The notes under the pieces were generated by a model. It worked only from the letters and a program-made list of their open reading frames with translations, did no database searches and was not told where the DNA came from. From Bacteroidota bacterium (GTDB lineage: Bacteria > Bacteroidota > Bacteroidia > UKL13-3), in assembly GCA_947457395.1 (NCBI GenBank), contig CANGVA010000003.1, positions 78,825 through 142,824 of the forward strand: 64,000 nucleotides of DNA. The letters run 5' to 3'. Made by a program: the position numbers and the translations under genes. The first letter of the stretch is position 1. The number at the start of each line of letters is the position of its first letter. Of this stretch, positions 26,509 through 49,064 are shown piece after piece.

Positions 26509-27450
26509 TTATGATGTTTGACCACCTAAATGATGCAGCATATCTTTGGTCATATTATCTAAATCAAATTCAGGTTTCCAACCCCAGTGATTGCGTGCCT
26601 CGGTATCGTCAATACTGGCAGGCCAGCTATCTGCAATGGCTTGTCTGAAATCCGGCTTATAGCTGATGGTAAACTCAGGAATGTGCTTGCGAATAGACGC
26701 TGCAATCTCTTCCGGATCAAAACTCACGCCTGCTATATTATAGCTGCTGCGTATTTTTACTTTTTCTGCAGGTGCTTCCATGAGTTCAATCGTGGCGCGC
26801 AAAGCGTCCGGCATATACATCATAGGCAAAACAGTTCCTGCTTTCAAAAAGCATTCATAGGTTTTGCTTTTTAAAGCTTCATGATAAATATGCACGGCAT
26901 AATCCGTGGTGCCTCCGCCCGGAGCAGATTTGTATCCAATTAATCCGGGATAGCGCAAACTCCTCACATCTACACCATATTTCTGATGATAATACTCGCA
27001 AAAACGCTCGCCTGCTTGTTTGCTTATGCCGTAAATGGTATTAGGCTCCATTACGGTGTATTGAGGCGTACTAACCCTTGGTGTAGTGGGGCCAAATACA
27101 GCAATGGAACTTGGCCAGTATAATTTCTTTATCAGTCCTTCCTTGGCAGCATCCAAACCGTTAAACAATCCCTGCATGTTCAGGTCCCAGCCCAGCTTTG
27201 GATTTTTTTCAGCTGTGGCCGAAAGCAGTGCGGCCAGCAGGTAAACCTGTGTAATGCCATGCTTTTTTATAATGGCATACATGTTTTCTTTGTCCATTAC
27301 ATCCAGCAATTCATAAGGACCTTCAGCTTGTGCAGGTGCTTTTATATCAGAAGTAACAACATTGTTGGTACCAAAAATTTTTCTGAGTTCTGTACTCAAT
27401 TCGGTACCAATTTGTCCGTTGGCACCAATAATTAAAATCTTTTCAGCCAT
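26509..27450 (-). CDS. tdh: L-threonine 3-dehydrogenase, SDR/UDP-glucose-4-epimerase-like type (NAD-dependent epimerase/dehydratase family)
   Basis: ILIIGANGQIGTEL; SSIAVFGP; YGISK (YxxxK); YPGLIGYKS.PGGGTTDYAV; KYECF. Collinear with the archaeal/bacterial short-chain TDHs as I recall them. Confidence 0.75.
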   Translation of the reverse strand: MAEKILIIGANGQIGTELSTELRKIFGTNNVVTSDIKAPAQAEGPYELLDVMDKENMYAIIKKHGITQVYLLAALLSATAEKNPKLGWDLNMQGLFNGLDAAKEGLIKKLYWPSSIAVFGPTTPRVSTPQYTVMEPNTIYGISKQAGERFCEYYHQKYGVDVRSLRYPGLIGYKSAPGGGTTDYAVHIYHEALKSKTYECFLKAGTVLPMMYMPDALRATIELMEAPAEKVKIRSSYNIAGVSFDPEEIAASIRKHIPEFTISYKPDFRQAIADSWPASIDDTEARNHWGWKPEFDLDNMTKDMLHHLGGQTS

Positions 27451-27580
27451 TGATTGTGCTTAAGCGGGTGTAAAAATAGAACTATTTTGGATTTAGGCCA
27501 TTAAATTATCTGCACATTTATGCCAACCTGAGCCTGATTTTATAACTACGTGTAAATGCCTTAATATTGAGGTGTTAAAA

Positions 27581-28885
27581 ATGCCTTACCTTATTCAAAG
27601 TTTTGATAAAACCACTACAACCATTGGTAGCTTAGTAGAACCTGAGCGCTACCGTGATTTATGGAACCTGCCTTTACATAAGCCAATTATTGCAAGAGGT
27701 GCCGGCCTGTCATATTGCGCTGCTTCTGCAGGCAATCAATGCGTGTCAGTAGATATGCGAAACTTTAACCGCATACTGTCTTTTGATGAAATTAACGGAA
27801 TAATAACCGTAGAGGCGGGTATACCTGCGGGGGAGTTAAATAATTTTCTGATTGGGAAAAACTGGGTTTTGCCAGTGCTTCCCGGTTATCCTGCCATTAC
27901 CATTGGGGGTTGTATTGGGTTTAATGTGCACGGCAAATCACAATACAAAGTTGGTACGTTTATCAATTGGGTAAAATCTATCACCTTATTTCATCCCGAT
28001 ACAGGTTTGCAAACATGCACACCTGATACTGAATTATTTCAATTAACGGTTGGTGGCATGGGCCTTACGGGTATTATTATTTCGGCTACCATTGCATTAA
28101 AAAAAATAGACGGGAACCTCATGTCAATTCAGGCAATGAAGGTGCCGGAGATACAAACCGCTGTGGAGGTAATGGCAACAAAAGCTGAAGAGTATGATTA
28201 TATTTATGCATGGAATAATTTTAACCTAAGGGGTAAGCATTTTGGAAAGGGCATTGTATACCTTGAAAATCATTTACCTGACAGAAAGGAATTAAACCCT
28301 AAGCCATACATCAATAAACTAAATAGATTTAAAAAAATTCCTGTGTTGTATAATGGCCTTACGGTAAAAACCATGAATCGGGTTTATGAATTGATGGATG
28401 CCTTGCAACCCAGGCAACGCGTAATTGATTTGGTGCAGGCTTCATTCCCAATTTATAACAAGGAATTATACTATTATTTTTTTGGTAAAAAAGGGTTTAG
28501 GGAGTACCAAGTGATATTTGATTTAGATAAATGGCAGGCTGCTGTTGCTGAAATTCAGAAGATCATAGCTCAAATGAATATGCCAATTGCATTAGGATCA
28601 TTAAAAATATTTAAAGGGGAGCCTCACAATATCAGTTTCTCAGGCAGCGGACTCTGTGTTACCATTGATGTGCCTAATAACAAAAAATCGATTTCTTTTT
28701 TTGAGGCATTAGATAAAATTACTTTAAAATATGGAGGCATCATTAACTTAAGTAAAGACAGCAGAGCTGATGCCAATTTGGTTAAACATTGTTTCCCGCA
28801 TTATGAACAGTTTAAGCAGGGAATCCATCGGCATGACCCCAACCAGTATTTTGGAAGTGAAATAAGAACCAGATTAGATTTATAA
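27581..28885 (+). CDS. FAD-dependent oxidase homologous to DprE1 (decaprenylphosphoryl-beta-D-ribose 2'-oxidase; FAD_binding_4)
   Basis: RGAGLSY..., LPVLPGYPAITIGGCIGFNVHGKSQ, LFQLTVGGMGLTGIIISATIALKKI and C-terminal INLSKDSRADANLVKHCFP...F align motif-for-motif with M. tuberculosis DprE1 ([69 protein letters not shown]), recalled from memory. The ORF-track start at 27572 is GTG and the first ATG is at 27581. Confidence 0.8.
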   Translation: MPYLIQSFDKTTTTIGSLVEPERYRDLWNLPLHKPIIARGAGLSYCAASAGNQCVSVDMRNFNRILSFDEINGIITVEAGIPAGELNNFLIGKNWVLPVLPGYPAITIGGCIGFNVHGKSQYKVGTFINWVKSITLFHPDTGLQTCTPDTELFQLTVGGMGLTGIIISATIALKKIDGNLMSIQAMKVPEIQTAVEVMATKAEEYDYIYAWNNFNLRGKHFGKGIVYLENHLPDRKELNPKPYINKLNRFKKIPVLYNGLTVKTMNRVYELMDALQPRQRVIDLVQASFPIYNKELYYYFFGKKGFREYQVIFDLDKWQAAVAEIQKIIAQMNMPIALGSLKIFKGEPHNISFSGSGLCVTIDVPNNKKSISFFEALDKITLKYGGIINLSKDSRADANLVKHCFPHYEQFKQGIHRHDPNQYFGSEIRTRLDL

Positions 28886-29628
28886 TGAAACAGGCAGCAA
28901 TTATCATTGGAGCAAGCTCAGGCTTAGGACGCGCATTGGCAGAAGCAATTGCCCGCACAGGCACGGATGTAATAATGAGTGCCCGCGCAGAACAGGAACT
29001 ACAAATTTTGGCCACCCATTTGCGCATCCGTTACCAAATACAGGCAGAGGTTATTCCGTTAGATCTAGCTACCCTTACTACAGCAACTGCTAAAAACTAT
29101 GTTGATCAATGTTTTGAAAAAATGCCACACTGTTCTCAGGTGTATATTACTGCAGGCATTATAGATGAGCTGGATAAAGGAACCGAGGCTGTTGATTATT
29201 TGCCTAAACTTATGCAGGTAAATTGCATGGGCATAAGCTATGTGATGAATGCGTGTTGCCAATGGTTGCAAAATCGGTCAGCCAATATTACCCTTATCTC
29301 TTCCATAGCGGCCATCAGGCCCCGTGGCTCCAATATTGCCTACAGCGCTTCTAAAATTGCACTGGAGTATATGGCATTGGGTTTGAGGCATCATTTTGCG
29401 CAAAGCCCATTGCGCATTCAGGTATACAGGGCTGGTTATATGGAAACCGCTTTAAGCACAGGTAAGAAATTATTGTTTCCTGTTGCAAAGCCTGAGCGTG
29501 TTGCCCGTGTTTTGATTAAAAACAGACATAAAGATACAGGCTTGATCTATGTGCCGGTATTCTGGCTACCTTTATCGTGGGTGCTGCAATATTTGCCTTG
29601 GTTTATATTTAAAAAACTGAAATTTTAA
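28885..29628 (+). CDS. Short-chain dehydrogenase/reductase homologous to DprE2 (decaprenylphosphoryl-2-keto-ribose reductase)
   Basis: Rossmann IIGASSGLGRALA and YSASKIAL (YxxxK). The C-terminal tail LIYVPVFWLPLSWVLQYLPWFIFKKLKF closely parallels the DprE2 tail ...[28 protein letters not shown]. Start overlaps the upstream stop (TAATG at 28883-28887). Confidence 0.75.
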   Translation: MKQAAIIIGASSGLGRALAEAIARTGTDVIMSARAEQELQILATHLRIRYQIQAEVIPLDLATLTTATAKNYVDQCFEKMPHCSQVYITAGIIDELDKGTEAVDYLPKLMQVNCMGISYVMNACCQWLQNRSANITLISSIAAIRPRGSNIAYSASKIALEYMALGLRHHFAQSPLRIQVYRAGYMETALSTGKKLLFPVAKPERVARVLIKNRHKDTGLIYVPVFWLPLSWVLQYLPWFIFKKLKF

Positions 29629-29644: not shown

Positions 29645-30373
29645 ATGAGCAAGTCCAATATCAGTATATTTTTTCCGGTTTATAATGATGAGCGCACCGT
29701 GCAGGCTGTTACAGAAAAAGCACTGGCTTTTGGTAAAGAGTGTGCCGGTTTGTTTGAAGTCATTATTATAAACGACTGCAGTCCGGATAATTCAGGAAAA
29801 ATTGCAGATACATTAGCCCTCACTTATCCAAATGTGCGCGTCATACATCATCCAAAAAATATGGGCTATGGCGCAGCAGTAAAATCTGGTTTGGGTGCAG
29901 CCCAATATGAATATGTCTGTTTTACCGATGGTGATGATGAGTATGATATGGAAGAATTTAAGAAACTCATCAAGCTGAAAGACTATTACGACCTTATAAT
30001 TACCTTTCGCTACAAAAAGATTTATTCCAATAAAAGGATTTTTATTTCTTATATCTACAATCGTTTGCTGCGATGGATATTCAGAACCAACTTTCGTGAT
30101 ATTAGTACTGGTTTACGCCTGGTGAGGAAAGATATATTAGCTGATATAAACCTGATAACAGATAGTCCGTTTATTGGCGCAGAGCTTACTATTAAAACTA
30201 TGCTAAAGGGCTACAGAGTGGGCGAAGTAGGCATACAAACATTTCCGCGTAAATTTGGTCAGGGCGCATCTACCAGCTTTAAAAATATTATGCGCACCAT
30301 TAAAGATATGCGTAAGGTATATCGCGAAATATTTTCAGACCATTATGATTTGCCTAAGAACAGGCAACGATAA
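29645..30373 (+). CDS. GT2-family polyprenyl-phosphate glycosyltransferase (DPM1/DPG-synthase-like; soluble, no TM anchor)
   Basis: IFFPVYNDE, IIINDCSPDNS, TDGDDEY (DxD), MGYGAAVKSG. No hydrophobic C-terminal segments. Confidence 0.8.
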   Translation: MSKSNISIFFPVYNDERTVQAVTEKALAFGKECAGLFEVIIINDCSPDNSGKIADTLALTYPNVRVIHHPKNMGYGAAVKSGLGAAQYEYVCFTDGDDEYDMEEFKKLIKLKDYYDLIITFRYKKIYSNKRIFISYIYNRLLRWIFRTNFRDISTGLRLVRKDILADINLITDSPFIGAELTIKTMLKGYRVGEVGIQTFPRKFGQGASTSFKNIMRTIKDMRKVYREIFSDHYDLPKNRQR

Positions 30374-30384
30374 ATTAATATATT

Positions 30385-31029
30385 ATGAATTACGACCGTA
30401 TTTACGAATATCGCTTTAAGGATGTTGACCGTGAGAAAAAACTCATGACATGGAAAGAGATTGCTACTTTCATATATAATAAGCTGGATAAACCAAAACG
30501 TATGCTTGATCCTGCTGCAGGGGATTGTGAGTTTATTAATCAGATTGCCTCGGAAGAACGCTGGGCGGTTGATATGAGTGAAATAACACCTAAAATGGCG
30601 CAGCAAGGTATTAAGGTAATCACAGGTAATAATTTAGAAGTAGACTTACCCGAAAATTATTTTGATGGGGTTTTTATCTCCAATTTTTTAGAGCACTTGC
30701 ACAGCCAGGAGCAGGTTGCATTTTTTCTGGAGCGCATGTATAAAGCCATCAAACCCGGAGGGCGTATTGCCATCATGGGACCCAACTTTAAATATACCTA
30801 CAAATATTATTTTGATTTTGCTGATCATACTGTGCTGCTTTCTGAAGGCGGAGTTGCCGAGCATTTGTATGGTGCAGGTTTTAATCCCATTGAAGTGCAC
30901 CCAAAATTTTTGCCATTATCATTTAAAAGCAGGTTACCTGTAAATGCATTTTTGGTGCGTACCTATTTAAATATGCCCATGGTTTGGCCTATTATGGGTA
31001 AGCAATTTTTACTCATTGGTCAGAAGTAA
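30385..31029 (+). CDS. Class I SAM-dependent methyltransferase
   Basis: Motif I region LDPAAGDCEF; post-I/II DGVFISNFLEHL, KPGGRIAIMGP. Confidence 0.7.
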   Translation: MNYDRIYEYRFKDVDREKKLMTWKEIATFIYNKLDKPKRMLDPAAGDCEFINQIASEERWAVDMSEITPKMAQQGIKVITGNNLEVDLPENYFDGVFISNFLEHLHSQEQVAFFLERMYKAIKPGGRIAIMGPNFKYTYKYYFDFADHTVLLSEGGVAEHLYGAGFNPIEVHPKFLPLSFKSRLPVNAFLVRTYLNMPMVWPIMGKQFLLIGQK

Positions 31030-31069: not shown

Positions 31070-31681
31070 ATGAATATAGCAATTATCGGAACAGGAAATG
31101 TTGGCGGTGCATTGGCTACTGCCTGGGCAGCCAAAGGTCATCATATTTTTCTCGGTGTGCAGGATCTCAATCAGTTTAAGGGTAGGGATTTGCTCAAGAA
31201 TCAACAAACACAGGCATGCTCCATTGCAGAAGCAGTGGCTAAGGCAGATGTGATATTAATGGCCATACCGCCTCAGGCCATTTTTGGTGTGTTAGAATTA
31301 ATGGGTGATGTAACAGGTAAAACCATAATTGATGCCACCAATGCCGTGAGGCTGGCCCCCGATCCCTATAAAACCGTATATCATTGCCTGGCCGATAAAA
31401 CCAAAGCAGATGTGGTAAAATGTTTTAACAGTACCGGTTTTGAAAACATGCTTAATCCGATTTATAATGGGCAAGGCATTGATATGTTTATGGCAGGCGA
31501 TAGTGATAAGGCTAAAGCTATAGCAAGTATTTTGGCAAGCGATGCAGGTTTTGGATCATGTATGGATTTTGGCAAGGCTGATAAGGTTGAACTCTTGGAA
31601 AAATTTGCCCTATCATGGATAAATCTGGCTATTATGCAGGGCCATGGTCGCAACATGGCGTTTAAAGTGGTGCGCAGGTAA
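31070..31681 (+). CDS. NADP-dependent oxidoreductase, F420-dependent-NADP-reductase (FNO/Npd)-like Rossmann protein
   Basis: MNIAIIGTGNVGGALA dinucleotide-binding start; ~200 aa; resembles the FNO/pyrroline-5-carboxylate-reductase-like NADP_oxidored family. Confidence 0.6.
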   Translation: MNIAIIGTGNVGGALATAWAAKGHHIFLGVQDLNQFKGRDLLKNQQTQACSIAEAVAKADVILMAIPPQAIFGVLELMGDVTGKTIIDATNAVRLAPDPYKTVYHCLADKTKADVVKCFNSTGFENMLNPIYNGQGIDMFMAGDSDKAKAIASILASDAGFGSCMDFGKADKVELLEKFALSWINLAIMQGHGRNMAFKVVRR

Positions 31682-31722: not shown

Positions 31723-33333
31723 TTATTGTGCAACCTTAAATCCATCATTGATATCAGAGGTGCGCAGCATTATTTTATCTGCAATGTAATACGTGCAAGG
31801 AAATTGATCCCAGCACAGGTTGTTTGATTGTACCACAAAAACAGGAAACTGATTGATTTGACTTTGTGTGAGTGTATGCTGAGGATAGCGTAGCGGCTTT
31901 ATAAGAGTAATTTTATCTTGGTTATGCCAAATAAGCCAGCATAGCATCAGCGCCACTACTCCCATATATGCTTTACGTGCCATGTTAAATGCAGGTAATG
32001 TATATTGAGACAAGGCTATGCCCATCATCACCACCATATATCCGTACATAAAACGCATATGTGGTCCGCTGTTAAATAACATGAACCAGCCTGCAAGTGC
32101 TGCCAGTGTTTGTATCGGAAAAGATTTTTGTTTAATGGAGATAATCAGCAGGCTCAGCAAAGATGCAACAAACGCTAAAACCATTCCCTTATTAAACAAG
32201 TCGAGTTGATTAAACCAAACCGGCACCCATTGCTCATATGAGAGCTGTGCTGTTTCATAAATATTGGAATAAGGTATGCGTCCCCATCCTTTTAAAACTA
32301 TTTTATCATATTCAAAGTACGAAGCAGGCACTTTCCAGTCTACCTGAAATAGATCTATCTGATTAAATGGATAAAGGAGGAAACCGCCACGTACCACATT
32401 ACCTGCAAGCCATGGCAGCAGCCAGATGCAGCCAAAAACAGCAATTATGGAAACATACAACCAAACCTGTTTGCTGCTGCGCAAGTACCAGAGTAATATT
32501 ATAATTAGAAACACCAGCAGCAAGGCCGTTGCCTTGATTGTGATGCCCCAAAATATCAGCAATGAAATAATGAGGCTGTAAAAGCCTTTTGATGCGTTGC
32601 TTTGTCTGCTCTCCAGGAATAAGTCAAAGCAAAGAAAAATAATACCGGTGATAACAATATCAGGTGTAACGCTGCCAATAAAAGCAGTTTTTACAGTAAG
32701 CAGCAGGAATAAAATAACAGGCACCCTGAACAAACGTTGTTTGGTTTCAAACACATTACGACTAAAATAAATCATGAGCAACACGTACCAAACACCGTTA
32801 AGTACATACACAGATTGCACGTCCATGTTGCGTAAACCGAAAAATGCCTGTAGATGAAACCACCAGTTATTATTTACAAGTGGACGGTTAAAATTACCAA
32901 TGCCAGGTAGCAGTTTGTAATACTCAGACCATTTAATGGCCTGCAGGTGGTAGTCCGCAATATCGCCCGACCCCGGCTTTATGGCTACGCTGATAATTGC
33001 TGTAAGCAGCAGCAGCAAATTAAACCATATGCTTTTGCGAATGCGATACATCAAATCGGGCAACACACTTATCATTTGCTTTTGGCAGGCTGTAAGTGAC
33101 GCGGTGATAAAAATCCAGACTACAACATGACAGCGCCAGTCAATTGGAATGATAAAATGAAGCAGTGAAACGATGCATGAAATAACAGCAAATCCAATAA
33201 TAACCACCAGTGGTGAGCGCAAGTGCCAGGGCTCGTGCTCCCCTGTAAGTTTCATGATAAACAGAATGGTTGTTACTCCTGCAGCATAGCCAATTATAGA
33301 GGCATAGAGCATGAGTAGCAAAACTTCCAGCAT
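31723..33333 (-). CDS. Polytopic integral membrane protein (>=12 predicted TM helices), possible GT-C-type glycosyltransferase or polymerase-like protein
   Basis: 536 aa, almost entirely hydrophobic helices with one sizeable loop; no family motif recognised. Immediately downstream (4 nt) of the YfhO gene. Confidence 0.5.
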   Translation of the reverse strand: MLEVLLLMLYASIIGYAAGVTTILFIMKLTGEHEPWHLRSPLVVIIGFAVISCIVSLLHFIIPIDWRCHVVVWIFITASLTACQKQMISVLPDLMYRIRKSIWFNLLLLLTAIISVAIKPGSGDIADYHLQAIKWSEYYKLLPGIGNFNRPLVNNNWWFHLQAFFGLRNMDVQSVYVLNGVWYVLLMIYFSRNVFETKQRLFRVPVILFLLLTVKTAFIGSVTPDIVITGIIFLCFDLFLESRQSNASKGFYSLIISLLIFWGITIKATALLLVFLIIILLWYLRSSKQVWLYVSIIAVFGCIWLLPWLAGNVVRGGFLLYPFNQIDLFQVDWKVPASYFEYDKIVLKGWGRIPYSNIYETAQLSYEQWVPVWFNQLDLFNKGMVLAFVASLLSLLIISIKQKSFPIQTLAALAGWFMLFNSGPHMRFMYGYMVVMMGIALSQYTLPAFNMARKAYMGVVALMLCWLIWHNQDKITLIKPLRYPQHTLTQSQINQFPVFVVQSNNLCWDQFPCTYYIADKIMLRTSDINDGFKVAQ

Positions 33334-33338
33334 GGTTA

Positions 33339-35783
33339 TTAGCTCTTTTGTTCGGTTTTTCTTCTCCTGAAAAAGGTAAATCCACCCGCAACTACAATCC
33401 CACCATATAAAATAATGGAAGCAAACATTGAAACACGTTCACCCGTTTCTACAACCTCAGGCTCAAACACAAATTCAATGCGATGTTTACCTGCAGGCAC
33501 TTTCATGCCGCGTAATACATAGTTACAGCGAAGATGTTCTGCTGCATTGCCATCAATTGAGGCCTTCCATCCTTTATCGTAGTAGATTTCAGAAAATACT
33601 GCCAGGTTATCCGAACTGCTGTTCGATTCATAAACCAGTTTGTTGGGCGCATAACTTAGCAGTTTAATAGATGATGTAGAATCTGCCGTTGGATTGAATC
33701 CTTTAAGCATTTCAGCAAAACGTTTATCAACCAATGCAGTAGTTTTTGTATTGATTGTTTTAAGTGAGTCTATTTCTGCATCCGCATTATCAACCATCAT
33801 CAGGTTGCTAATAAACCACGCGTTGCCATTTGCTTCCGGATTGGCTTGAGCAAACAAATTATTGGCACTATCACCTACTATAAAGTATTTAACATTGAGC
33901 ATATTAAAAGCCTGCATATTCCCGCGTGATAAGTGAAACTCTATTAATTCCTGATATCTCCGCATTTTAGCGCCATGATATCCGCCAATGGATTTATGCC
34001 AATAGGAGGTGAGGGCATCCTGATCCAGGCGTTGCGTAGTATTGTATACACGGTAATGAATATCTTTATCCTGCAAAATCATTTCATCGGCTTGTGATTT
34101 TGGAAAGGAAGCTTCCAGATTTTTCTTCTTGGTTTCAAAATCTGAATCGTTTAGGTAACGTTTGTCAACGCCCCACAAGTCAATAACAATAAGACCTAAC
34201 AAAACACCCACAAATAATTGCTGCTTCACTTTTCCGTTCAGATAAAACCATATAAGGGTGAATGCAGCACCTATAAACAGTAATGACCTAAGTGCATCCG
34301 CTTTTAGTAAGGCTTCACGGTCCTTAACGATCGATTCTCTAAGCCATTCAGGCAGGCGGTCGTCAACCGGTGAAATGAAGTTAAGAAAAAGATCAGGCAT
34401 AAATGAAAAAACTGCGCATAGCCCCCCAACAATATAAAAGCTGTACAGTAAGGGTTTTTTCAAATCGGCCGGCTTTATTTTTCCTGAAAGCAAATCGCGC
34501 AAGGCAAGCAGGGCAAGCAGCGGAAATGTTGTTTGGGTAATGCACAGAATAAAAGTTACCGAGCGGAATTTGTTATACAAAGGAAAGTTATAGAAGAACA
34601 AATCCGTTAGTGTCATAAAATTTTTGCCCATGGAAAGCATGATGGCCAATACAGAAATGGCCAGTATCCACCATTTTTCAGGCCCTTTGATAACAAATAA
34701 GCCTAGCACAAACAGAAAACAAATGATGGCGCCATAGTATATGGGGCCGGCTGTAAATGGCTGGTCACCCCAGTAAACAGGCATACCCTGAATGATTTGC
34801 TTTGCATTAGGAACCCCGTTTTGCTTTAAGATTTTATAGGTTTCGGATGAGGTGCTGAGTTCTGCCGAACTGGAGCCGCCATAAAAATTAGGGATGAGCA
34901 GGGTAAATGGTTCTGCAACACCATTGCTCCATTGCAGGGCATAATCTTTATCCAATCCGGAGGAGGCAATAGCGGCATTACCTTCGCCTGTAGCCGTTTT
35001 GGTAAGTTCTGATTTGCCACGTATACTATACTTGCCATATTCTTCTGTTGGTAGCAGATTGTTGGCGCCTGTTGCCACACCAACGGCTGCGGCAACAGCC
35101 AGAAATACACCGCAAATAAGTAAGTGTGCGATCTTTTTGTCTTTGGCTGCAATCACAATCTCGGCTATCATCCACACGCCAATCAGAATCATTAGGTAAT
35201 AGGTTATTTGCAAGTGGCCTGCAGCCAGCTGTAGCGATAAAGCAATACCTGTGAGCAAGGCCCCGATAAGCCTGTTTTTGCGTAAAGTATAGTTGATACC
35301 TGCAAGCACCAGAGGCATAAAGGCAATGGCATTGCCTTTGCCTACGTGCCCTGCATCTATATTGATGAGGTTAAAAGAGGAAAACATAAATGCCAGACTT
35401 CCTGCAATGGCCAGCCAGGGCGAGACCTCGAAGGTTAGCAATAAGATATAAAAGCAAATAAACAACAGAAACATCGTGTCTACCGGGTTAGGTAAAACCC
35501 GGCTAATAAAATCACTTACCGTTGATGTGAAGTTGTTTTTATAAGATGGCCCGATGAGATAGGTGGGCATGCCGCTAAACACAGAATTGGTCCAAAAAGT
35601 GCGCTCTCCGCTTGCCTTTTGATATTGTGCAATTTCATTGTAGGTAGCTTGCCATTGCTGCACGTCATGTTGTTTTAGTGCTTTCCCTGAAAGTAACGGA
35701 TTAAAATAAATGATAATGGCAGTAAGGGCAATGATAATGGCAGCCAGATGAGGAAACCATTTTTTCTGCAAAAGTGAATTCAT
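33339..35783 (-). CDS. YfhO-family membrane protein (GT-C fold; polyprenyl-phosphate-sugar-dependent periplasmic glycosyltransferase family)
   Basis: N-terminus MNSLLQKKWFPHLAAIIIALTAIIIYFNPLLSGKALKQHDVQQWQATYNEIAQYQKASGERTFWTNSVFSGMPTYLIG matches the conserved start of Bacteroidota YfhO-family proteins (...QHDI.Q..G...EI..YR..TGEE.LW.NSMFGGMP.YL) as I recall them. ~800 aa, multi-TM N-terminal half with a large C-terminal soluble domain. Confidence 0.7.
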   Translation of the reverse strand: MNSLLQKKWFPHLAAIIIALTAIIIYFNPLLSGKALKQHDVQQWQATYNEIAQYQKASGERTFWTNSVFSGMPTYLIGPSYKNNFTSTVSDFISRVLPNPVDTMFLLFICFYILLLTFEVSPWLAIAGSLAFMFSSFNLINIDAGHVGKGNAIAFMPLVLAGINYTLRKNRLIGALLTGIALSLQLAAGHLQITYYLMILIGVWMIAEIVIAAKDKKIAHLLICGVFLAVAAAVGVATGANNLLPTEEYGKYSIRGKSELTKTATGEGNAAIASSGLDKDYALQWSNGVAEPFTLLIPNFYGGSSSAELSTSSETYKILKQNGVPNAKQIIQGMPVYWGDQPFTAGPIYYGAIICFLFVLGLFVIKGPEKWWILAISVLAIMLSMGKNFMTLTDLFFYNFPLYNKFRSVTFILCITQTTFPLLALLALRDLLSGKIKPADLKKPLLYSFYIVGGLCAVFSFMPDLFLNFISPVDDRLPEWLRESIVKDREALLKADALRSLLFIGAAFTLIWFYLNGKVKQQLFVGVLLGLIVIDLWGVDKRYLNDSDFETKKKNLEASFPKSQADEMILQDKDIHYRVYNTTQRLDQDALTSYWHKSIGGYHGAKMRRYQELIEFHLSRGNMQAFNMLNVKYFIVGDSANNLFAQANPEANGNAWFISNLMMVDNADAEIDSLKTINTKTTALVDKRFAEMLKGFNPTADSTSSIKLLSYAPNKLVYESNSSSDNLAVFSEIYYDKGWKASIDGNAAEHLRCNYVLRGMKVPAGKHRIEFVFEPEVVETGERVSMFASIILYGGIVVAGGFTFFRRRKTEQKS

Positions 35784-36023
35784 GTGTTTTTGTTTAAATT
35801 GGGTTAAACACCCCTATTTAGCTGAAATAGCGGGTTTTCTGTTGCCGAATATATGTTTTGTCTGTTAACCCGCAAAATATGATAAAAATCAATCATAAAA
35901 TTAATGTTTGTATGAATGTCAAAATAGGGTAAAATGGATGTAAACAAAACATACGGGCCCATGGAATTAACTTTATTTGCACCCACTAAAATTAACCCGA
36001 TTCATTATATCCAATCTAAGTCA

Positions 36024-37316
36024 ATGAAAAAACTATTACTTCTTTTAACAGCCGTCTTGTTCATCAGCCAATTACATGCCCAAAATGTCGATTCAGTTTC
36101 GATGGGAGGCGGAACAACTGCTTATCCTTTGGATGTGTATTATAATATTACCACCGGATCCAAGGATACAGCAAGAAATAACAACTGGCATATTGCGTTC
36201 TCCGTGCGTAATGCACAGCCACCAATGAATGTATTACTTGCTGCTACCGTGCGCATCAATATGGCTCGTGGGGTTACGGTATACAAATCAAACCAAGGTC
36301 CTGATTCCTGGTCCAGTTTTGATACGACTAACTGGAGAAACTGGAATGTGGTTAGAGATAGCGACACATCATGGGATGTTGGAGCCTTAAATCAGGGAAG
36401 AACCAATGGGTTTGATTTCGGCTGGGGAGACTACAATATGAATACGCACCATATTGATGGAAAAGTGATCTACCTTTTCGCAATTAGAAATGGTAGCAAT
36501 ACCGTATTTAAGAAACTCATGATTAACCAGCTTACCCGCGATACGGCTTGGAACTTTACTTTTGCTAATCTAAACAATACAGATAGCAACAATGTGCGTT
36601 TTAACAAGGCTGCTTATACCGGTAAAATGTTTGCGTATTATAATTTATTTACTAAAACTTTATTTGATCGAGAGCCATTAAGAGCCAATTGGGACTTATT
36701 GTTTACCCGCTATCATGCTAGGGTAAATTACCTAGGCTCCGATACTTTTTATAATGTAACAGGTGTACTAATCAATCCTACAAATGTGATGGCTGCCCGT
36801 GTTTCAGGTCTACAGCGTGATAGCGTTAATCGTAGCAAAGTTACAGCATACATTTCTATCATTAATACCATTGGTTGGGATTGGAAAGTTTCTCCTATGG
36901 GTCCGCCAACACCATCATGGCCTATTGTTGATACATTGGTGTTTTTTGTAAAAAAGGGCAATCTTATTTATAAATTGTTATTTGACAGATTTGATGCAAA
37001 TCCTAATATGATTGTTTTCAACAAATCATCTATAGATGTTACTTCGGTAAGTAAGGTAAGCAATCCTGTTGCAAGTGTATTGGCGTATCCCAATCCTGCC
37101 AAGACGGATGTAACCATCAAGGTTATAACAGAGGCCTATAATGCCCGTCTTTCAGTTATTGATATAACCGGGAAAACTGTTTACCAAACATCCATGGAAG
37201 TTGCAGACGATGGTTTTCTCTCACAAGTTAAGACCGATCAAATAAGTAAAGGTATTTACTTTTATCATGTAGAAACCCCGATAGGAATGGTAACCGGCAA
37301 ATTTATTGTGGAGTAA
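36024..37316 (+). CDS. Secreted HmuY-like (putative heme-binding) family protein with T9SS C-terminal sorting domain
   Basis: Signal peptide MKKLLLLLTAVLFISQLHAQ (the upstream ORF-track start lies beyond it). NNNWHIAFS and ANWDLLFTRY motifs parallel the downstream lipoprotein and resemble the HmuY WDIAF-type motif. C-terminus LAYPNPAKTDVTIKV...GIYFYHV...KFIVE. Confidence 0.55.
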   Translation: MKKLLLLLTAVLFISQLHAQNVDSVSMGGGTTAYPLDVYYNITTGSKDTARNNNWHIAFSVRNAQPPMNVLLAATVRINMARGVTVYKSNQGPDSWSSFDTTNWRNWNVVRDSDTSWDVGALNQGRTNGFDFGWGDYNMNTHHIDGKVIYLFAIRNGSNTVFKKLMINQLTRDTAWNFTFANLNNTDSNNVRFNKAAYTGKMFAYYNLFTKTLFDREPLRANWDLLFTRYHARVNYLGSDTFYNVTGVLINPTNVMAARVSGLQRDSVNRSKVTAYISIINTIGWDWKVSPMGPPTPSWPIVDTLVFFVKKGNLIYKLLFDRFDANPNMIVFNKSSIDVTSVSKVSNPVASVLAYPNPAKTDVTIKVITEAYNARLSVIDITGKTVYQTSMEVADDGFLSQVKTDQISKGIYFYHVETPIGMVTGKFIVE

Positions 37317-37364
37317 TCCTACTTGGAAAATATTTTTTCATATGGTTTAAAAACAACACTCACC

Positions 37365-39362
37365 ATGTTTTGCATGGTGTTTGTTGTTTTTGTGCCCTCT
37401 ATGGCACAGCAAGCGGACACCGCAAAAAGTAAGCAATTAGATGATGTGGTGATAACGGGGCAGTATGGCGAAAATTCCCTTTCGCAATCGGTTTACAGGG
37501 TAAAGGTAATTGGGCAAAAAAGAATTGAGCAGCAAGGTGCAGTTAACCTGCGTGATTTGTTAAACAATGAACTGAATATGCGTATAAACAACGACCCCGC
37601 ACTGGGTAGTGGTTTAAGCATTCAGGGCATCAATGGGCAAAACATAAAAATTATGATTGATGGTGTGCCCATTATTGGTCGTGAAGGAAATTTTATCGAT
37701 CTCAATCAGCTTAATCTAAATAATATTGAACGAATAGAAGTAGTTGAAGGGCCCATGAGTGTGAGTTTTGGAACCGATGCACTGGGCGGTGTTATTAATC
37801 TTATTACAAAGAAATCATACAAGCATCAGGATCAACTAGGAGCCAAAATATACTACGAAAATATTGGGCAGTATAACCTGAATTTATTTACAAGTATCTA
37901 TTTGAACAGAGAATGGCGTTTGGAGGTAAACGGATCAAGAAACTTTTTTGAAGGCTTTGCTCAAAATGAGGATTCACGCGTAAAACTATGGAAGCCACGC
38001 ACACAATATTTTGGAGATTTAAGTATATCTAAAAAATATTCTAACTCATCGCTCCGTTTAACCGCTAGTATTTTGGATGAGAAGGTTACCAACAGAGATT
38101 CCGGAACCATTACACCTTATAGCGCATACGGAATAGATCAGTATTATTACACCAGAAGGGCATCAACTGCGGTATTTTATGAGCGAAAACTTTTTAGCAA
38201 CCATTCACTACATGTAGTGGCCGCCTACAACCATTACAGGCGCATTGTAAATACTATTAGAAAAGATCTTGTTACACTGGAGGAATCGCTGATACCTGAA
38301 GCTCACTTGCAGGATACAGGTTACTTTAGTAATATAATGAGTAGAGGAACATTCTCCAGAAATAAGGATAAGGCTAAATATAATTATCAGTTTGGTTATG
38401 AAGCAACGCATGATCAGTTTAACGGTAGCCGCATTGCTAATGGTAGTCAATCTATTACAGATATCAGTGGTTTTGCCAGTATGGAACTTAAGTTCTTTCA
38501 GCGGCTGCTGGTTAGGCCCGGAATACGTCTAACCTATAACAGTAAGTATCAGGCCCCGCTTATACCTTCGATAAATATTAAATGGGATATTCGCTCGGAC
38601 CTAAGCCTTCGTGCTTCCTTCGGAAGAGGATTCAGATCACCTACGTTAAAGGAATTGTATTTAAGCTTTACAGATCCTGCACACAATATTAAGGGTAACC
38701 CAGATTTAAAAGCTGAAACGCAAAATAATTATCAGGTAAGTCTAACACACCAGCATAGAATGCAGGACCAAATGCTTAAAATGGATGTCGCATTTTTTTA
38801 CAATGAAATCTTTAACAAAATAGATTTAGTTTTATTAAACAGCACCAATGTGGAGGCACGTTATTCATCCATCAGTGATTTTAGAAATGTCGGTACTAAT
38901 GTTACAGCTGAATATGTGGCACCAGATTATGCAGTGAGTTTGGGCTATGCACTCATAGGTATCAATAATACTTTTACCAATCTATTGGAGTCTGACAAGT
39001 ATTTTACAACCCAGGAGTATCGTTGTAATGCGCGTTATCTGATTCGAAAAATCAAAACGCAGATTTCATTGTTTTATAAGTATAATTCCCGCATGCAGCT
39101 ATTTCAATATAATATTAACGAAGGGCAGGTTAGAACCGGTTTTATTCAAGGATTTGCTTTGTTTGATTTAACAGCAGGCAGAAGTTTTTTTAAACAAAAA
39201 CTGGCTATTCAAACTGGCATAAAAAATATATTGGATGTGCTCAATGTTCAGGCCAGTTTAGTTACTGGTCCGCATGCACCGGCTGGAAACAACGCTGCAG
39301 TAGCAATGGGTAGAACTTACTTTTGTGCAGTTCAATATCAATTAAGTATAGATAAGCGATGA
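37365..39362 (+). CDS. TonB-dependent outer-membrane receptor (HmuR-like)
   Basis: Signal peptide, plug-domain motif IEVVEGPMSVSFGTDALGGVINLITK, and a C-terminal beta-barrel. The ORF-track start at 37323 is TTG and an in-frame ATG is at 37365. Confidence 0.85.
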   Translation: MFCMVFVVFVPSMAQQADTAKSKQLDDVVITGQYGENSLSQSVYRVKVIGQKRIEQQGAVNLRDLLNNELNMRINNDPALGSGLSIQGINGQNIKIMIDGVPIIGREGNFIDLNQLNLNNIERIEVVEGPMSVSFGTDALGGVINLITKKSYKHQDQLGAKIYYENIGQYNLNLFTSIYLNREWRLEVNGSRNFFEGFAQNEDSRVKLWKPRTQYFGDLSISKKYSNSSLRLTASILDEKVTNRDSGTITPYSAYGIDQYYYTRRASTAVFYERKLFSNHSLHVVAAYNHYRRIVNTIRKDLVTLEESLIPEAHLQDTGYFSNIMSRGTFSRNKDKAKYNYQFGYEATHDQFNGSRIANGSQSITDISGFASMELKFFQRLLVRPGIRLTYNSKYQAPLIPSINIKWDIRSDLSLRASFGRGFRSPTLKELYLSFTDPAHNIKGNPDLKAETQNNYQVSLTHQHRMQDQMLKMDVAFFYNEIFNKIDLVLLNSTNVEARYSSISDFRNVGTNVTAEYVAPDYAVSLGYALIGINNTFTNLLESDKYFTTQEYRCNARYLIRKIKTQISLFYKYNSRMQLFQYNINEGQVRTGFIQGFALFDLTAGRSFFKQKLAIQTGIKNILDVLNVQASLVTGPHAPAGNNAAVAMGRTYFCAVQYQLSIDKR

Positions 39363-40375
39363 TTAAAGTTAGATATACCGCATATATGTTGACAATGGCT
39401 ATTTTCTTTTCATCATGTGAGAAGGAGGAAGTGCCCATTAAATTACCACCTAAAGATCATAATGTTGGTATGATGAGCGTTGATTTAGGCACAGAATACG
39501 ATAAGCAGGTTTATATTAATCTTGACTCAGGAATAGTTCAATCAGTAGATAATAATTTATGGGATCTAAGTTTTGATGCAGCACCGGAAGGTTTTGCTAT
39601 TTATATAAATGGAGGCAAGAATGTGTTGGTAGCAAATACCGGTAGCACAGATTTTTCTGATATCAGAATCACTTCTGAGTTAAATTGGCGCTGGGATGAG
39701 TCTTCAGGCAATCCGGATTCACTTGCGTTGAGCAATTGGTGTAATCTGCATAATCGCAGATCATATGACAGTGTTTATGTTATCGATAGGGGAATGGGAT
39801 CAAGCAATGCCAATAATTATTTTAAGTTTAAGATAATTGCTGTGACACCGCAGAAGTATGTTATTTCAGTTGCAGATATGAAGGGCAGATTTATTAAAGA
39901 AACAAATGTTTATAAGTCTCCTGATAAGATGCTGGTATATTTTTCATTCGATAACGGGGGTACATATCATAATTTTGAGCCCTCTATTCACCAATGGCAT
40001 TTTAAGTTTTTACGTTACCGGTGGGTTTATTATGAATTTACCCCACCGCTGCTGTATCAGGTTACAGGTGTTCATTTAAACAAACGAATGTTTGATGTAG
40101 CGGTAGATAGTACACTCCAGTTCTACGATATTAAGTTCGACCACTCCTTGAGTCCTACACTTTGTTATTCAAATGACAGGGATCAAATCGGGTTTGAATG
40201 GAAGTATCCTGATTTTACACCAAATGGTGTGCGCTATCGAACCAGAAGTTATATTAATTACTTTTTAAGACACCAGCACATGCATGCAACCGTTTATAAA
40301 CTTCGTTTTCTCGATTTTTATGACGATAAAGGAAATAAGGGCTCGCCACGGTTTGAATTCCAGCTACTGCATTAA
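39359..40375 (+). CDS. HmuY-like family lipoprotein (paralog of 36024..37316)
   Basis: Lipobox MAIFFSSCEKEE. NNLWDLSFDA and HQWHFKFLRY parallel the NNNWHIAFS and ANWDLLFTRY motifs of the upstream T9SS protein. Start overlaps the receptor stop (ATGA at 39359-39362). Confidence 0.5.
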   Translation: MIKVRYTAYMLTMAIFFSSCEKEEVPIKLPPKDHNVGMMSVDLGTEYDKQVYINLDSGIVQSVDNNLWDLSFDAAPEGFAIYINGGKNVLVANTGSTDFSDIRITSELNWRWDESSGNPDSLALSNWCNLHNRRSYDSVYVIDRGMGSSNANNYFKFKIIAVTPQKYVISVADMKGRFIKETNVYKSPDKMLVYFSFDNGGTYHNFEPSIHQWHFKFLRYRWVYYEFTPPLLYQVTGVHLNKRMFDVAVDSTLQFYDIKFDHSLSPTLCYSNDRDQIGFEWKYPDFTPNGVRYRTRSYINYFLRHQHMHATVYKLRFLDFYDDKGNKGSPRFEFQLLH

Positions 40376-45884: not shown

Positions 45885-47048
45885 ATGACTACAGAGCAGC
45901 AACTTGAATTGTCTATTGTAATGCCTTGCCTAAATGAGGCTGAAACAATTGGTGCATGTATTGAAAAAGCAATACGTTACTTAAATCAGCATCATATTAG
46001 GGGAGAAGTAATTGTTTCTGATAACGGAAGTACCGATGGCTCCATTGCTATTGCCGAAAGGCTTGGCGCCCGTGTGGTGCATGCTACTGAAAAGGGTTAT
46101 GGCAGCGCATTGATGTATGGGATAGAAGCAGCATTTGGCAAATATGTAATCATGGGTGACTCGGATGATAGCTATGATTTCTCTGCTCTCAATCCTTTTC
46201 TTATAAAACTACGTGAAGGTTACGATTTGGTGGTAGGCAACCGCTTTAAAGGCGGAATTGGCAAAGGTGCCATGCCTTTTCTGCATAAATATTTAGGTAA
46301 TCCGGTCTTGTCATTTATTGGCAAATTGTTTTTTCATTCACCTGTAAATGATTTTCATTGTGGTTTACGCGGCTTCAGACAGGATATCGTCTCGCTGTTA
46401 AATCTCCGTACCACGGGCATGGAGTTTGCTAGTGAGATGATTGTGAAAGCAAGCTTATTTAAGTTGCGTATCTGCGAAGTGCCAACTACGTTGAGTGTGG
46501 CTGGTCGTAGCCGCCCACCGCACCTGCGCACTTGGCAAGACGGCTGGCGGCATCTACGCTTTTTACTTATTTACAGTCCGCGCTGGCTTTTTTTATATCC
46601 CGGAATATTGTTGATGCTAACCGGTATGCTATCAGGCGGATTTATTATGAATGGCCCTGTTCATTTGTTTAATATTTATTTTGATACCAACACCTTGCTT
46701 TATTCAGGAGCTGCTGCCATTATTGGTTTTCAGTTAATGGTGTTCGGAATTTTTACGCGCAGGTATGCCATTCAAACTGGATTAATGCCCGACCAAAAAA
46801 CAATTTCTCTGGTAGAAAAATGGCTAACTCTGGAACGAGGAATTGTAGTTGGTGTGCTCATTACCCTTGCCGGTGTTGCAGGTTCTGCTTACTCTTTGTA
46901 TCTATGGGATCAGGTTGATTTTGGAACACTGGAATATTCTTCAATTCTGCGTGTTGTTATACCATCGGTTGTTTTTATTATTCTGGGCATTCAAACCATT
47001 TTCTCAAGTTTCTTTTTAAGTGTGCTTTCCCTTAACCGCAAGCGATGA
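45885..47048 (+). CDS. Membrane-anchored GT2 polyprenyl-phosphate glycosyltransferase (GtrB/ArnC/DPM-synthase-like, with C-terminal TM helices)
   Basis: LSIVMPCLNE, VIVSDNGSTDGS, MGDSDDSYDF (DxD), GYGSALMYG. Four hydrophobic helices in the C-terminal 150 aa. Confidence 0.8.
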   Translation: MTTEQQLELSIVMPCLNEAETIGACIEKAIRYLNQHHIRGEVIVSDNGSTDGSIAIAERLGARVVHATEKGYGSALMYGIEAAFGKYVIMGDSDDSYDFSALNPFLIKLREGYDLVVGNRFKGGIGKGAMPFLHKYLGNPVLSFIGKLFFHSPVNDFHCGLRGFRQDIVSLLNLRTTGMEFASEMIVKASLFKLRICEVPTTLSVAGRSRPPHLRTWQDGWRHLRFLLIYSPRWLFLYPGILLMLTGMLSGGFIMNGPVHLFNIYFDTNTLLYSGAAAIIGFQLMVFGIFTRRYAIQTGLMPDQKTISLVEKWLTLERGIVVGVLITLAGVAGSAYSLYLWDQVDFGTLEYSSILRVVIPSVVFIILGIQTIFSSFFLSVLSLNRKR

Positions 47049-47633: not shown

Positions 47634-49064
47634 GTGAGCAATTCAATTAAAGTAGCAGTTATTGGTGCCGGTCCTGCCGGTATCACAGCTGCATATCAAT
47701 TAAGCAAAGAAATATCATCGGTTGATATATATGAGGCCAGCTCGTCTGTTGGGGGCCTTGCCAAGTCGGTTGAGCTATGGGGGCAAACTGTTGATATTGG
47801 TCCGCACCGTTTTTTTAGTAGCGATACAAGAGTAAACTCTTTATGGCTAGAGGTTGTAAAAGAAGACTATGCTATGGTAAACCGCCTTACGCGTATCCTC
47901 TATAAAAACAATTTATATTTCTATCCAATTAAAGCACTTGACGCGCTTAGTAAACTGGGCCTATTTGAAGCAGCACGCTGTATGCTTAGTTTTGGTCTGG
48001 AAAGAATATTGCCAACCAAGGATAAGAGTACGTTTGAAGGATGGGTGCGCAGCCGCTTTGGGAAAAGGCTCTATGAAATATTTTTTAAAACCTACAGCGA
48101 AAAACTTTGGGGTATTCCCTGCAATGAACTGGATGCTGATTTTGCAGCACAACGCATTAAAAAACTCTCCTTGTGGGAGGCGGTAAAAGCGGCACTGTTT
48201 GGTGATAAAGATAAAAAGCACAAAACGCTGGTGGATGAATTTGCTTACCCATTGCAGGGAACAGGTATGGTTTATAATCGGATGGAGCAGCTGATTAAAG
48301 AAAAAGGTGGCAAAGTATTTTTAAAAACACCTGTAAAGCGTGTGATTGTTGAAGGTGGCATGGCCAAGGGGCTTGAACTGGAAAACGGTGAGATAAAATA
48401 TTACGACCATATTATTTCTTCCATGCCACTTACGCTGCTGGTAAGTCGCATTGATGAAGCACCCCAGCAAATAAAAAGTCTGAATGCACAACTGCGTTTC
48501 AGAAATACCATTATTGTTTTTGTTGAGGTAGATGCAACCAATTTGTTTGAAGACAATTGGCTGTATGTGCATTCAACAGATTTACGCACCGGGCGTATTA
48601 CCAATTTCAGAAACTGGGTACCTCAATTATATAAGGATAAAAAAACCAGCATACTTGCTTTGGAATACTGGTGCTATGACGAAGATGATTTCTGGAAATG
48701 GACAGATGAACAGTTGAACAATTTAGGTATGGAGGAAATACGTAAAACCGGATTAATTGGCGAGGCAAATATTTTACATGCACATACGTATCGCATACCA
48801 CGTTGTTATCCTGTATACTCAAAAGGGTACAAAGAAATTCTGAGCCCTGTTGAGCAATACCTAAGCAGCATTCAGCATCTACATGTAATTGGCCGATATG
48901 GTGCGTTTAAGTATAACAACCAGGATCACTCCATTTTAATGGGTATGCTGGCAGCTGAAAATATTTTAAAGCATACCAAGCACAATCTTTGGGAAATAAA
49001 TACTGATTACGAAAGTTATCAGGAAAGTTCAGTTATTACTAAAACCGGGCTGGTAAAAAAATGA
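47634..49064 (+). CDS. FAD-dependent oxidoreductase of the UDP-galactopyranose-mutase (Glf)-like / amine-oxidase-like family
   Basis: N-terminal KVAVIGAGPAGITAAYQL...IYEASSSVGG (FAD Rossmann). FGKRLYEIFFKTYSEKLWGIPCNELDADFAAQRIKK parallels the E. coli/Klebsiella Glf segment [33 protein letters not shown], recalled from memory. C-terminal GRYGAFKYNNQDHSILMG. GTG start at 47634 (no upstream in-frame ATG). ~100 aa longer than bacterial Glf. Confidence 0.6.
   Translation: MSNSIKVAVIGAGPAGITAAYQLSKEISSVDIYEASSSVGGLAKSVELWGQTVDIGPHRFFSSDTRVNSLWLEVVKEDYAMVNRLTRILYKNNLYFYPIKALDALSKLGLFEAARCMLSFGLERILPTKDKSTFEGWVRSRFGKRLYEIFFKTYSEKLWGIPCNELDADFAAQRIKKLSLWEAVKAALFGDKDKKHKTLVDEFAYPLQGTGMVYNRMEQLIKEKGGKVFLKTPVKRVIVEGGMAKGLELENGEIKYYDHIISSMPLTLLVSRIDEAPQQIKSLNAQLRFRNTIIVFVEVDATNLFEDNWLYVHSTDLRTGRITNFRNWVPQLYKDKKTSILALEYWCYDEDDFWKWTDEQLNNLGMEEIRKTGLIGEANILHAHTYRIPRCYPVYSKGYKEILSPVEQYLSSIQHLHVIGRYGAFKYNNQDHSILMGMLAAENILKHTKHNLWEINTDYESYQESSVITKTGLVKK

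Follow-up and report, generated by a model that had tools for sequence, protein, structure and literature searches.

DprE1 and DprE2, the textbook pair for epimerisation of a sugar on its lipid carrier, are a leading drug target in tuberculosis; to our knowledge, all homologues described until now sit in pentofuranose pathways, running from phosphoribosyl pyrophosphate (PRPP) through ribose to arabinose. In the lipid A pathways of the Arn, Francisella and Bordetella kind (ArnC/ArnD/ArnT-type enzymes), a family 2 glycosyltransferase (GT2) loads undecaprenyl phosphate, the sugar is modified on the lipid and a GT-C enzyme transfers it. The three-component pentofuranose systems consist of PPPRS, a MATE flippase and GT136, with homologues of DprE1/DprE2 where arabinofuranose is made, and the authors of that work were unaware of any further epimerases in systems for O-antigen side-chain glycosylation (Kelly et al. 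2024, PMC11127046); the PRPP route is given again in a natural-product paper of 2026 (PMC13110770). YfhO is an established GT-C family; in the glycosylation of Gram-positive teichoic acids it is joined by a GT2 and a small flippase (PMC7389260). Here we analyse two adjacent genes, for a DprE1-like oxidase dependent on flavin adenine dinucleotide (FAD) and a DprE2-like short-chain dehydrogenase/reductase (SDR), at positions 27581-29628 of a 64,000-nucleotide stretch of a Bacteroidota genome (contig CANGVA010000003.1, positions 78,825 to 142,824, forward strand), hereafter ‘the window’. The family assignment is sound at the superfamily level, the pair belongs to a distinct, GT2-coupled clade of the DprE1/DprE2 system, and it probably remodels a different lipid-linked sugar for decoration of the cell surface. 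The open-access papers searched contain no account of a GT2-coupled pair of the DprE1 kind; a prior one may exist elsewhere.

Four genes on one strand form the operon-like unit around which the argument turns:

27581-28885, + strand: DprE1-family FAD-dependent oxidase, 434 amino acids (aa), Pfam FAD_binding_4; member of the GT2-linked clade
28885-29628, + strand: DprE2-type SDR, 247 aa, Pfam adh_short
29645-30373, + strand: small soluble GT2 of the polyprenyl-phosphate glycosyltransferase type, 242 aa, Pfam Glycos_transf_2 (98.6 bits)
30385-31029, + strand: class I S-adenosylmethionine-dependent methyltransferase, 214 aa, Pfam Methyltransf_11/12/25; frequent fourth gene of the cassette

An earlier, sequence-only reading of this DNA had proposed two open reading frames joined through TAATG, and both their positions and our reading of the junction bear this out: at AGATTTATAATGAAACAGGC the stop codon of the oxidase (TAA, 28883-28885) and the start codon of the SDR (ATG, 28885-28887) overlap by one base, so that the SDR is translationally coupled to the oxidase. 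The oxidase itself likely begins at the ATG at 27581 and not at the GTG at 27572, since 19 homologues all share its residues M1, S7 and D9. All of the DprE1 and DprE2 motifs quoted in that reading are present—RGAGLSY (aa 39-45), LPVLPG (97-102), GGCIGFNVHGK (109-119), TVGGMGLTGII (156-166) and KDSR (392-395) in the oxidase; GASSGLG (9-15), YSASK (153-157) as well as a hydrophobic/basic tail that closes with IFKKLKF in its partner—and, with G9, Y153 and K157 invariant across 60 sequences, the glycine-rich Rossmann motif and catalytic Tyr-x-x-x-Lys mark the latter, on motif grounds, as a classical SDR. The two following genes are closely spaced (SDR to GT2, 16 bases; GT2 to methyltransferase, 11 bases), and the G+C content of the cassette (0.38-0.41) is the same as that of its flanks, with no island signature; a scan for promoters and terminators gave no more sites than were counted in shuffled sequence.

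The unit recurs well beyond this genome. Our locus set numbers 89, made up of 80 metagenome loci together with others opened individually, and the counts given here are limited to those with enough DNA on hand. The oxidase-SDR-GT2 order is repeated in Arcticibacter, Daviesbacteria (of the candidate phyla radiation, CPR), Nitrospiraceae, Chitinophagaceae and further metagenome bacteria; in 60 of 64 loci the oxidase gene is followed directly by that of the SDR, so that the two are neighbours in distant phyla as well as in close relatives. Of 42 loci, 31 have an orthologous GT2 beside the pair, 10 have some other adjacent GT2 and only one has none; a methyltransferase is present in 19 of the 42, orthologues 35% identical to that of the window adjoining the cassette in L006 and L008. 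By BLASTP identity to distant loci (GT2 61-72%, oxidase 42-53%, SDR 33-50%, methyltransferase 35% where present), it is the GT2 that is best conserved. The earlier reading overlooked the conserved next-gene GT2 as a member of the unit, along with the methyltransferase and two GT-C-fold proteins downstream.

Approached from the side of the GT2, the family is of similar size (1918 matches against 1696), and two of three contexts carry the full cassette (Chitinophagaceae L100; L102). An orthologue 71% identical to the window GT2 is accompanied by a membrane protein and a methyltransferase and has no oxidase/SDR pair nearby (L101 7001-9268, in the Flavobacteriales metagenome-assembled genome (MAG) JACJZT01), which suggests that the two oxidoreductases are an optional addition serving to diversify the sugar; L101 is a capsule-type locus, with a TviB-like UDP-GlcNAc 6-dehydrogenase, an SDR epimerase/dehydratase, the GT2, a 501-aa protein lacking any Pfam match and a methyltransferase. 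A single-protein scan of genome contigs returned three close relatives only, all Sphingobacteriales/Bacteroidia MAGs, and is uninformative on distribution.

Turning to the oxidase, its alignment with the NCBIfam model for DprE1 (NF053785) runs end to end (37-449 of 449) at 230.9 bits (E 3.5e-68), below the equivalog cut-off of 500; on the same model Rhodococcus DprE1 scores 808.5 bits and the oxidases of UbiA-linked loci in Gram-negative bacteria, Bacteroidota included, 404-428. A sequence search of the PDB (phmmer) gives full-length matches to DprE1 only (E 4e-35), the next family being matched in its FAD domain at E 1e-5. With an AlphaFold model built on 19 homologues (predicted local distance difference test score 88.5), the top 49 Foldseek matches are all DprE1 (E ~1e-33, TM-score 0.81-0.85), followed by a galactonolactone dehydrogenase at E 2e-23; the model predicts a two-domain VAO/PCMH-type FAD fold with a substrate domain of the DprE1 type. 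The homology of the oxidase is with DprE1, as opposed to alditol or lactone oxidases of a generic kind. In the databases it passes as ‘FAD-binding oxidoreductase’ (NCBI) or decaprenylphospho-beta-D-ribofuranose 2-oxidase (JGI).

For a comparison of the active site we used M. smegmatis DprE1 as the ruler (M. tuberculosis numbering), with residues taken from Table 2 of PMC6128881 and supplemented from general knowledge, and set 57 members of the GT2-linked clade against 9 canonical sequences. Both clades keep Tyr60, Gly117, His132, Gly133, Lys134, Trp230, Gln336, Leu363, Lys367, Phe369 and Lys418 (Y45, G102, H117, G118, K119, W211, Q310, L338, K342, F344 and K392, respectively, in the window oxidase); the catalytic and FAD-site set of Lys418, His132, Lys134, Gln336, Lys367, Trp230 and Gly117 is invariant in all 57, and position 60 is Tyr in 51 of them. 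Other pocket residues are replaced clade-wide: Ser228/Val by Tyr (55/57), Gln334 by Glu (57/57), Val365 by Ser (55/57) and Asn385 by Cys (45/57), with Ile or Val at the equivalent of Leu317 and Ala or Thr at that of Cys387, the benzothiazinone site of DprE1; the clade-specific residues of the window oxidase are Y209, E308, S340, C359 and T361. The nine canonical oxidases, by contrast, keep Gln334, Val365 and Leu317, and have Val, Ser or Met at 228 and Thr, Ser or Asn at 385, never Tyr or Cys. With the catalytic residues kept and pocket residues replaced, the chemistry is therefore probably the same and the sugar-facing part of the pocket different.

These clade-specific changes, in implying a different substrate geometry, also lend something to the notion that the pair acts on the GT2 product without epimerising C2—either at another carbon or by producing a keto sugar as a handle for methylation or amination, the SDR serving elsewhere—and the methyltransferase of 19/42 loci, the Methyltransf_13/14 genes of seven loci and a DegT aminotransferase in L006 would fit with it. 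We nevertheless think it unlikely: the SDR is nearly always present and co-diverges with the oxidase, just as in the DprE1/DprE2 couple, and neither aminotransferase nor C-methyltransferase belongs to what is conserved in the cassette.

Among 18,950 NCBIfam models, the best for the SDR is PRK07102 (NF005489; 126.5 bits, cut-off 267), whilst its alignment with the DprE2 model (NF053786) extends end to end (9-251 of 252) at 77.6 bits (cut-off 250); neither cut-off is reached. The partner SDRs of UbiA-linked oxidases in Chondrinema, Rhizobium, Sinorhizobium and Burkholderia score 322-359 bits with PRK07102 and 171-198 with the DprE2 model, and Rhodococcus DprE2 scores 162 and 399, respectively. 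Because these UbiA-linked neighbours of DprE1 homologues exceed its cut-off, PRK07102 can be taken to describe the DprE2-type reductase of Gram-negative bacteria, and on these scores the families nearest to the window SDR (PRK07102, DprE2) are of the DprE2 kind. Its tail, LIYVPVFWLPLSWVLQYLPWFIFKKLKF, aligns with that of Rhodococcus DprE2 and with those of every UbiA-linked partner, in the common pattern Y-x-P-x-x-W ... P-x-x-[IVL]-[FY]-[KR]-[KR], in agreement with the DprE2-type hydrophobic tail noted earlier. Homology to the DprE1/DprE2 couple thus stands for both proteins, the closest families being DprE1 and the DprE2 type and not generic oxidases or unrelated SDRs. The resemblance extends to the arrangement of the known pentofuranose systems, in which a VAO-type FAD oxidase and a tailed classical SDR are likewise encoded by adjacent and often overlapping genes, with GT-C transferases in the neighbourhood.

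Orthology is another matter. The window pair is only 22-32% identical to the DprE1/DprE2 proteins of these systems and falls below ortholog cut-offs (231 bits against 500 for the oxidase; 77.6 against 250 for the SDR), and when 65 oxidases and 60 SDRs are placed in neighbour-joining trees, the GT2-linked sequences part from the UbiA-linked/actinobacterial ones in all 50 bootstraps, for oxidase and SDR alike, the trees being distance-based and the canonical comparison set small (eight plasmid loci and one PDB sequence). Judged by scores and clade split, orthology of these proteins to the ribose epimerase is not supported, and the pair appears as a separate, widespread and apparently unstudied branch of DprE1/DprE2.

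Canonical loci look different. A tblastn search of a plasmid collection found homologues of only 23-32% identity, and in six of the eight loci opened the gene order is UbiA-(GtrA)-oxidase-SDR; the Rhodococcus locus reads GtrA-DprE1-DprE2-AftA, and the canonical locus of Sinorhizobium adjoins nodABC. A plasmid of Chondrinema litorale (NZ_CP111066; L090 6006-11871) encodes a decaprenyl-phosphate phosphoribosyltransferase, a DprE1-like protein, an SDR, an acyltransferase and a GT39; both clades thus occur in Bacteroidota, and an arabinofuranose-type pathway is not alien to the phylum. The UbiA protein of Rhizobium leguminosarum plasmid pR132503 (L091 4914-6455; 513 aa; PRK08238, 640 bits; phosphoribosyltransferase part 230-502) may resemble the fused phosphatase-PPPRS architecture of Citrobacter ORF15. 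The earlier statement that pairs outside actinobacteria are known mainly from Pseudomonas pilin and rhizobial Nod-factor loci is dated, given the many Gram-negative glycan loci on record (PMC11127046) and the Chondrinema plasmid.

Searches with phmmer and tblastn found neither a DPPRS-type UbiA phosphoribosyltransferase (PPPRS) nor a GtrA-type flippase in the window, and none of either is present in the 89 related loci; the lone UbiA close to a cassette, in L009, has no match to DPPRS models, and every gene between 26.5 and 35.8 kb of the window is assigned to a family other than PPPRS or GtrA. The window departs from the described pentofuranose systems in lacking, near the pair, a UbiA-type phosphoribosyltransferase, a phosphatase and a flippase of the GtrA/MATE type, and a GT2 stands in the place of the entry enzyme. 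As this is not a PRPP-dependent UbiA-type enzyme, the substrate is probably not ribofuranose, nor the product arabinofuranose; with the phosphoribosyltransferase absent from window and loci alike, D-arabinofuranose in particular is unlikely. What had been suggested from the sequence was a lipid-linked donor of D-arabinofuranose or another C2-epimer, and of these it is the hedge that survives.

For the same reasons we give still less credence to a canonical pathway, in which the pair would convert polyprenyl-phosphate ribofuranose to arabinofuranose with the UbiA-type enzyme encoded elsewhere and the GT2 unrelated. The homology at family level, the conserved catalytic residues and the automatic JGI annotation speak for it, and in M. 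tuberculosis too, as is generally known, the phosphoribosyltransferase gene is not adjacent to dprE1. Against it stand an oxidase score (231 bits) under the equivalog cut-off and well short of those of Gram-negative UbiA-linked oxidases and of Rhodococcus, the separate clade with its 50/50 bootstraps, the clade-wide change of pocket residues and the lack of a DPPRS-type UbiA in window and loci; it would also leave the near-obligate and highly conserved GT2 unexplained.

That GT2 aligns with ArnC (9hwj) over residues 5-218, the R-x-F-G-x-S motif included (RKFGQGAS versus REFGESK), and with an archaeal DPM synthase (5mlz) over residues 5-213. Its NCBIfam matches over most of its length are AglJ, Dol-P-hexose transferase, ArnC and PpgS, all below their cut-offs; whole-domain alignments are found with polyprenyl-phosphate glycosyltransferases only, matches to other GT2 proteins covering the N-terminal half. 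Together with the Pfam match, these alignments fit a GT-A catalytic domain with an acidic metal-binding motif. Whereas GtrB, ArnC and archaeal DPM synthases are anchored by C-terminal transmembrane helices, no transmembrane helix or hydrophobic segment is predicted in the window GT2 or in any of its orthologues. Polyprenyl-phosphate glycosyltransferases of the DPM1 and PpgS types lack transmembrane helices as well, and the missing anchor is not disqualifying for this class. The soluble GT2, the cut-offs missed and a best PDB match to an uncharacterised GT2 (3bcv, N-terminal half only) could be taken to mean that we are dealing with an ordinary Leloir transferase for a non-polyprenyl acceptor, that oxidase and SDR act on a soluble or glycolipid substrate and that the likeness to lipid pathways is superficial, which we regard as the most doubtful of the alternatives given the full-domain alignments with their C-terminal R-x-F-G-x-S, the known anchorless enzymes, the GT-C-fold or large polytopic proteins (users of lipid-phosphate sugars) in 26 of 31 long loci, and the fact that the sole characterised relatives of oxidase and SDR use a polyprenyl-phosphate sugar. 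The window holds a second GT2 further on (45885-47048, + strand, 387 aa), 29% identical to that of the cassette over 197 residues; a flavin amine-oxidase-like gene (47634-49064) follows ~0.6 kb past it, with a 182-aa open reading frame between.

Downstream of, and convergent with, the cassette lie two genes for membrane proteins, both candidate transferases whose association with it is weaker:

31723-33333, - strand: polytopic membrane protein of the DUF8201 / LIC_10190 family, 536 aa; GT-C fold
33339-35783, - strand: YfhO-family GT-C membrane protein, 814 aa; Pfam YfhO, E 1.6e-15

The DUF8201 protein was found to have a GT-C glycosyltransferase membrane fold; that of the YfhO family has 12 predicted transmembrane segments and weak NCBIfam matches to the models for streptococcal PgfM1 and PgfM2. 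A YfhO-like gene is also convergent just past the GT2 in the distant locus L084, and a large polytopic membrane protein lies within 6 kb of the cassette in 26 of the 31 long loci, often right behind the GT2. Such proteins come from several families unrelated to one another; a single GT-C family common to all loci was considered and rejected in favour of several lineage-specific ones. In Bacteroidetes bacterium B1 (NKJG01; L098 9001-13536), a DUF8201 homologue of 37% identity occurs with a different small GT2, which points to DUF8201 proteins as GT-C enzymes that work with small GT2 donor synthases; that GT2 is 22% identical to the one in the cassette, and two NAD-dependent epimerase/dehydratase genes are found there.

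In one subclade (L079 9010-9972 and six other loci), an LPG_synthase_TM protein, similar to the flippase domain of MprF, is encoded directly upstream of the oxidase; such proteins are candidate flippases for the lipid-linked sugar, and we found no equivalent in the cluster of the window. Genes of the sugar C-methyltransferase type (Methyltransf_13/14) lie near the cassette at L034 1062-2297, L006 14331-15578 and others among the seven loci mentioned above, and FkbM-type methyltransferases occur in five; these genes hint at frequent methylation or branching of the finished sugar. As to the donor sugar, neighbouring genes give no consistent signal (a TviB-like dehydrogenase and SDR in L101; GalE-like proteins in eight loci; the C-methyltransferases).

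Taken with the downstream GT-C proteins, the four-gene unit is best read, and with rather more confidence than doubt on our part, as an extracytoplasmic glycosylation module in which a sugar is remodelled on its lipid carrier. At the cytoplasmic face, the soluble GT2 would load a sugar derived from a nucleotide sugar onto polyprenyl (undecaprenyl) phosphate, as its family resemblance suggests. The DprE1-like flavoenzyme, with its conserved Lys/His/Lys/Gln framework, would then turn a secondary hydroxyl of the lipid-linked sugar into a ketone, presumably at C2 by analogy with DprE1, and the DprE2-like SDR may reduce this ketone from the opposite face with NAD(P)H, giving the epimer. A flippase would move the epimerised donor across the membrane, where GT-C enzymes—here DUF8201 and/or YfhO, elsewhere those of other families—would pass the sugar to an acceptor in the envelope; O-methylation of the sugar is the probable task of the methyltransferase.

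What we observed directly is the homology, the conservation of catalytic residues, the linkage of the genes, the split into two clades and the GT-C fold, and several points weigh against the scheme built upon them. The catalytic steps, the lipid substrate, the epimerised position and the roles of DUF8201 and YfhO are all inferred. The GT2 has no membrane anchor, and its assignment to the polyprenyl-phosphate class reflects a moderate similarity (E ~1e-8 to ArnC and DPM synthase). No flippase was identified in the window, and DUF8201 and YfhO are seen linked to the cassette in close relatives only, apart from the one distant YfhO case. The negative result for the phosphoribosyltransferase covers window and loci, such that the gene may lie elsewhere in the genome; and the 80 metagenome loci, having been fished with patterns of the clade itself, describe the GT2-linked clade and not the whole family.

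Compared with the Gtr-type and the CsbB/GtcA/YfhO three-component systems, the window shares a GT2 of the polyprenyl-phosphate type, YfhO or other GT-C proteins and a predicted lipid-phosphate sugar donor for use outside the cytoplasm; it differs in that its GT2 is soluble, in that no flippase of the GtrA/GtcA type was found, and in having an oxidase/reductase pair between donor synthesis and transfer, which in the literature we searched is not described for those systems. In Arn-type tailoring of lipid A the on-lipid step is a deformylation or deacetylation, not a redox epimerisation, and the enzymes are unrelated to DprE1/DprE2.

The surroundings of the unit are otherwise those of housekeeping or typical Bacteroidota genes: BipA, an acyl-CoA dehydrogenase, a protein sorted by the type IX secretion system (T9SS) and a TonB receptor with HmuY. 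Upstream and divergent, the gene at 26509-27450 (- strand) looked on Pfam grounds like a sugar epimerase and was considered as a nucleotide-sugar enzyme of the module, a role we rejected since it is an SDR-type L-threonine 3-dehydrogenase (PDB 2yy7, E 3e-136). The NADP oxidoreductase at 31070-31681 (+ strand, 203 aa, F420_oxidored) was also rejected as a member of the unit, being absent from the syntenic locus L003 and from all distant loci; it is present in a 90%-identical relative (L001) and seems to have been inserted or lost recently. At 35934-40375 (+ strand), genes for a Por_Secre_tail T9SS-sorted protein, a TonB-dependent receptor and an HmuY-like protein stand in a row, as in loci for uptake of haem or another ligand.

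What may emerge, and here we rate the chances as evenly balanced, is an undescribed and widespread route to rare envelope sugars: a DPM1/GtrB-like GT2 would load an ordinary sugar derived from a nucleotide sugar, a dedicated clade of DprE1/DprE2-like enzymes would epimerise it on the lipid and interchangeable GT-C proteins would transfer it. If true, the product would deliver a sugar for which no nucleotide-sugar pathway exists, and the route would span Bacteroidota, CPR, Nitrospirota and many uncultured bacteria, merging the Gtr-type addition of hexose side chains with the DprE1/DprE2 pentofuranose pathway, hitherto described as distinct. A systematic mis-annotation would be corrected, JGI and KEGG labelling such proteins decaprenylphospho-ribofuranose 2-oxidase, and the glycoengineering toolbox would gain new enzymes. 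On-lipid redox epimerisation would then be a more general means of diversifying surface glycans, and abundant bacteria of fresh water and soil would be predicted to carry unknown sugars in their envelopes.

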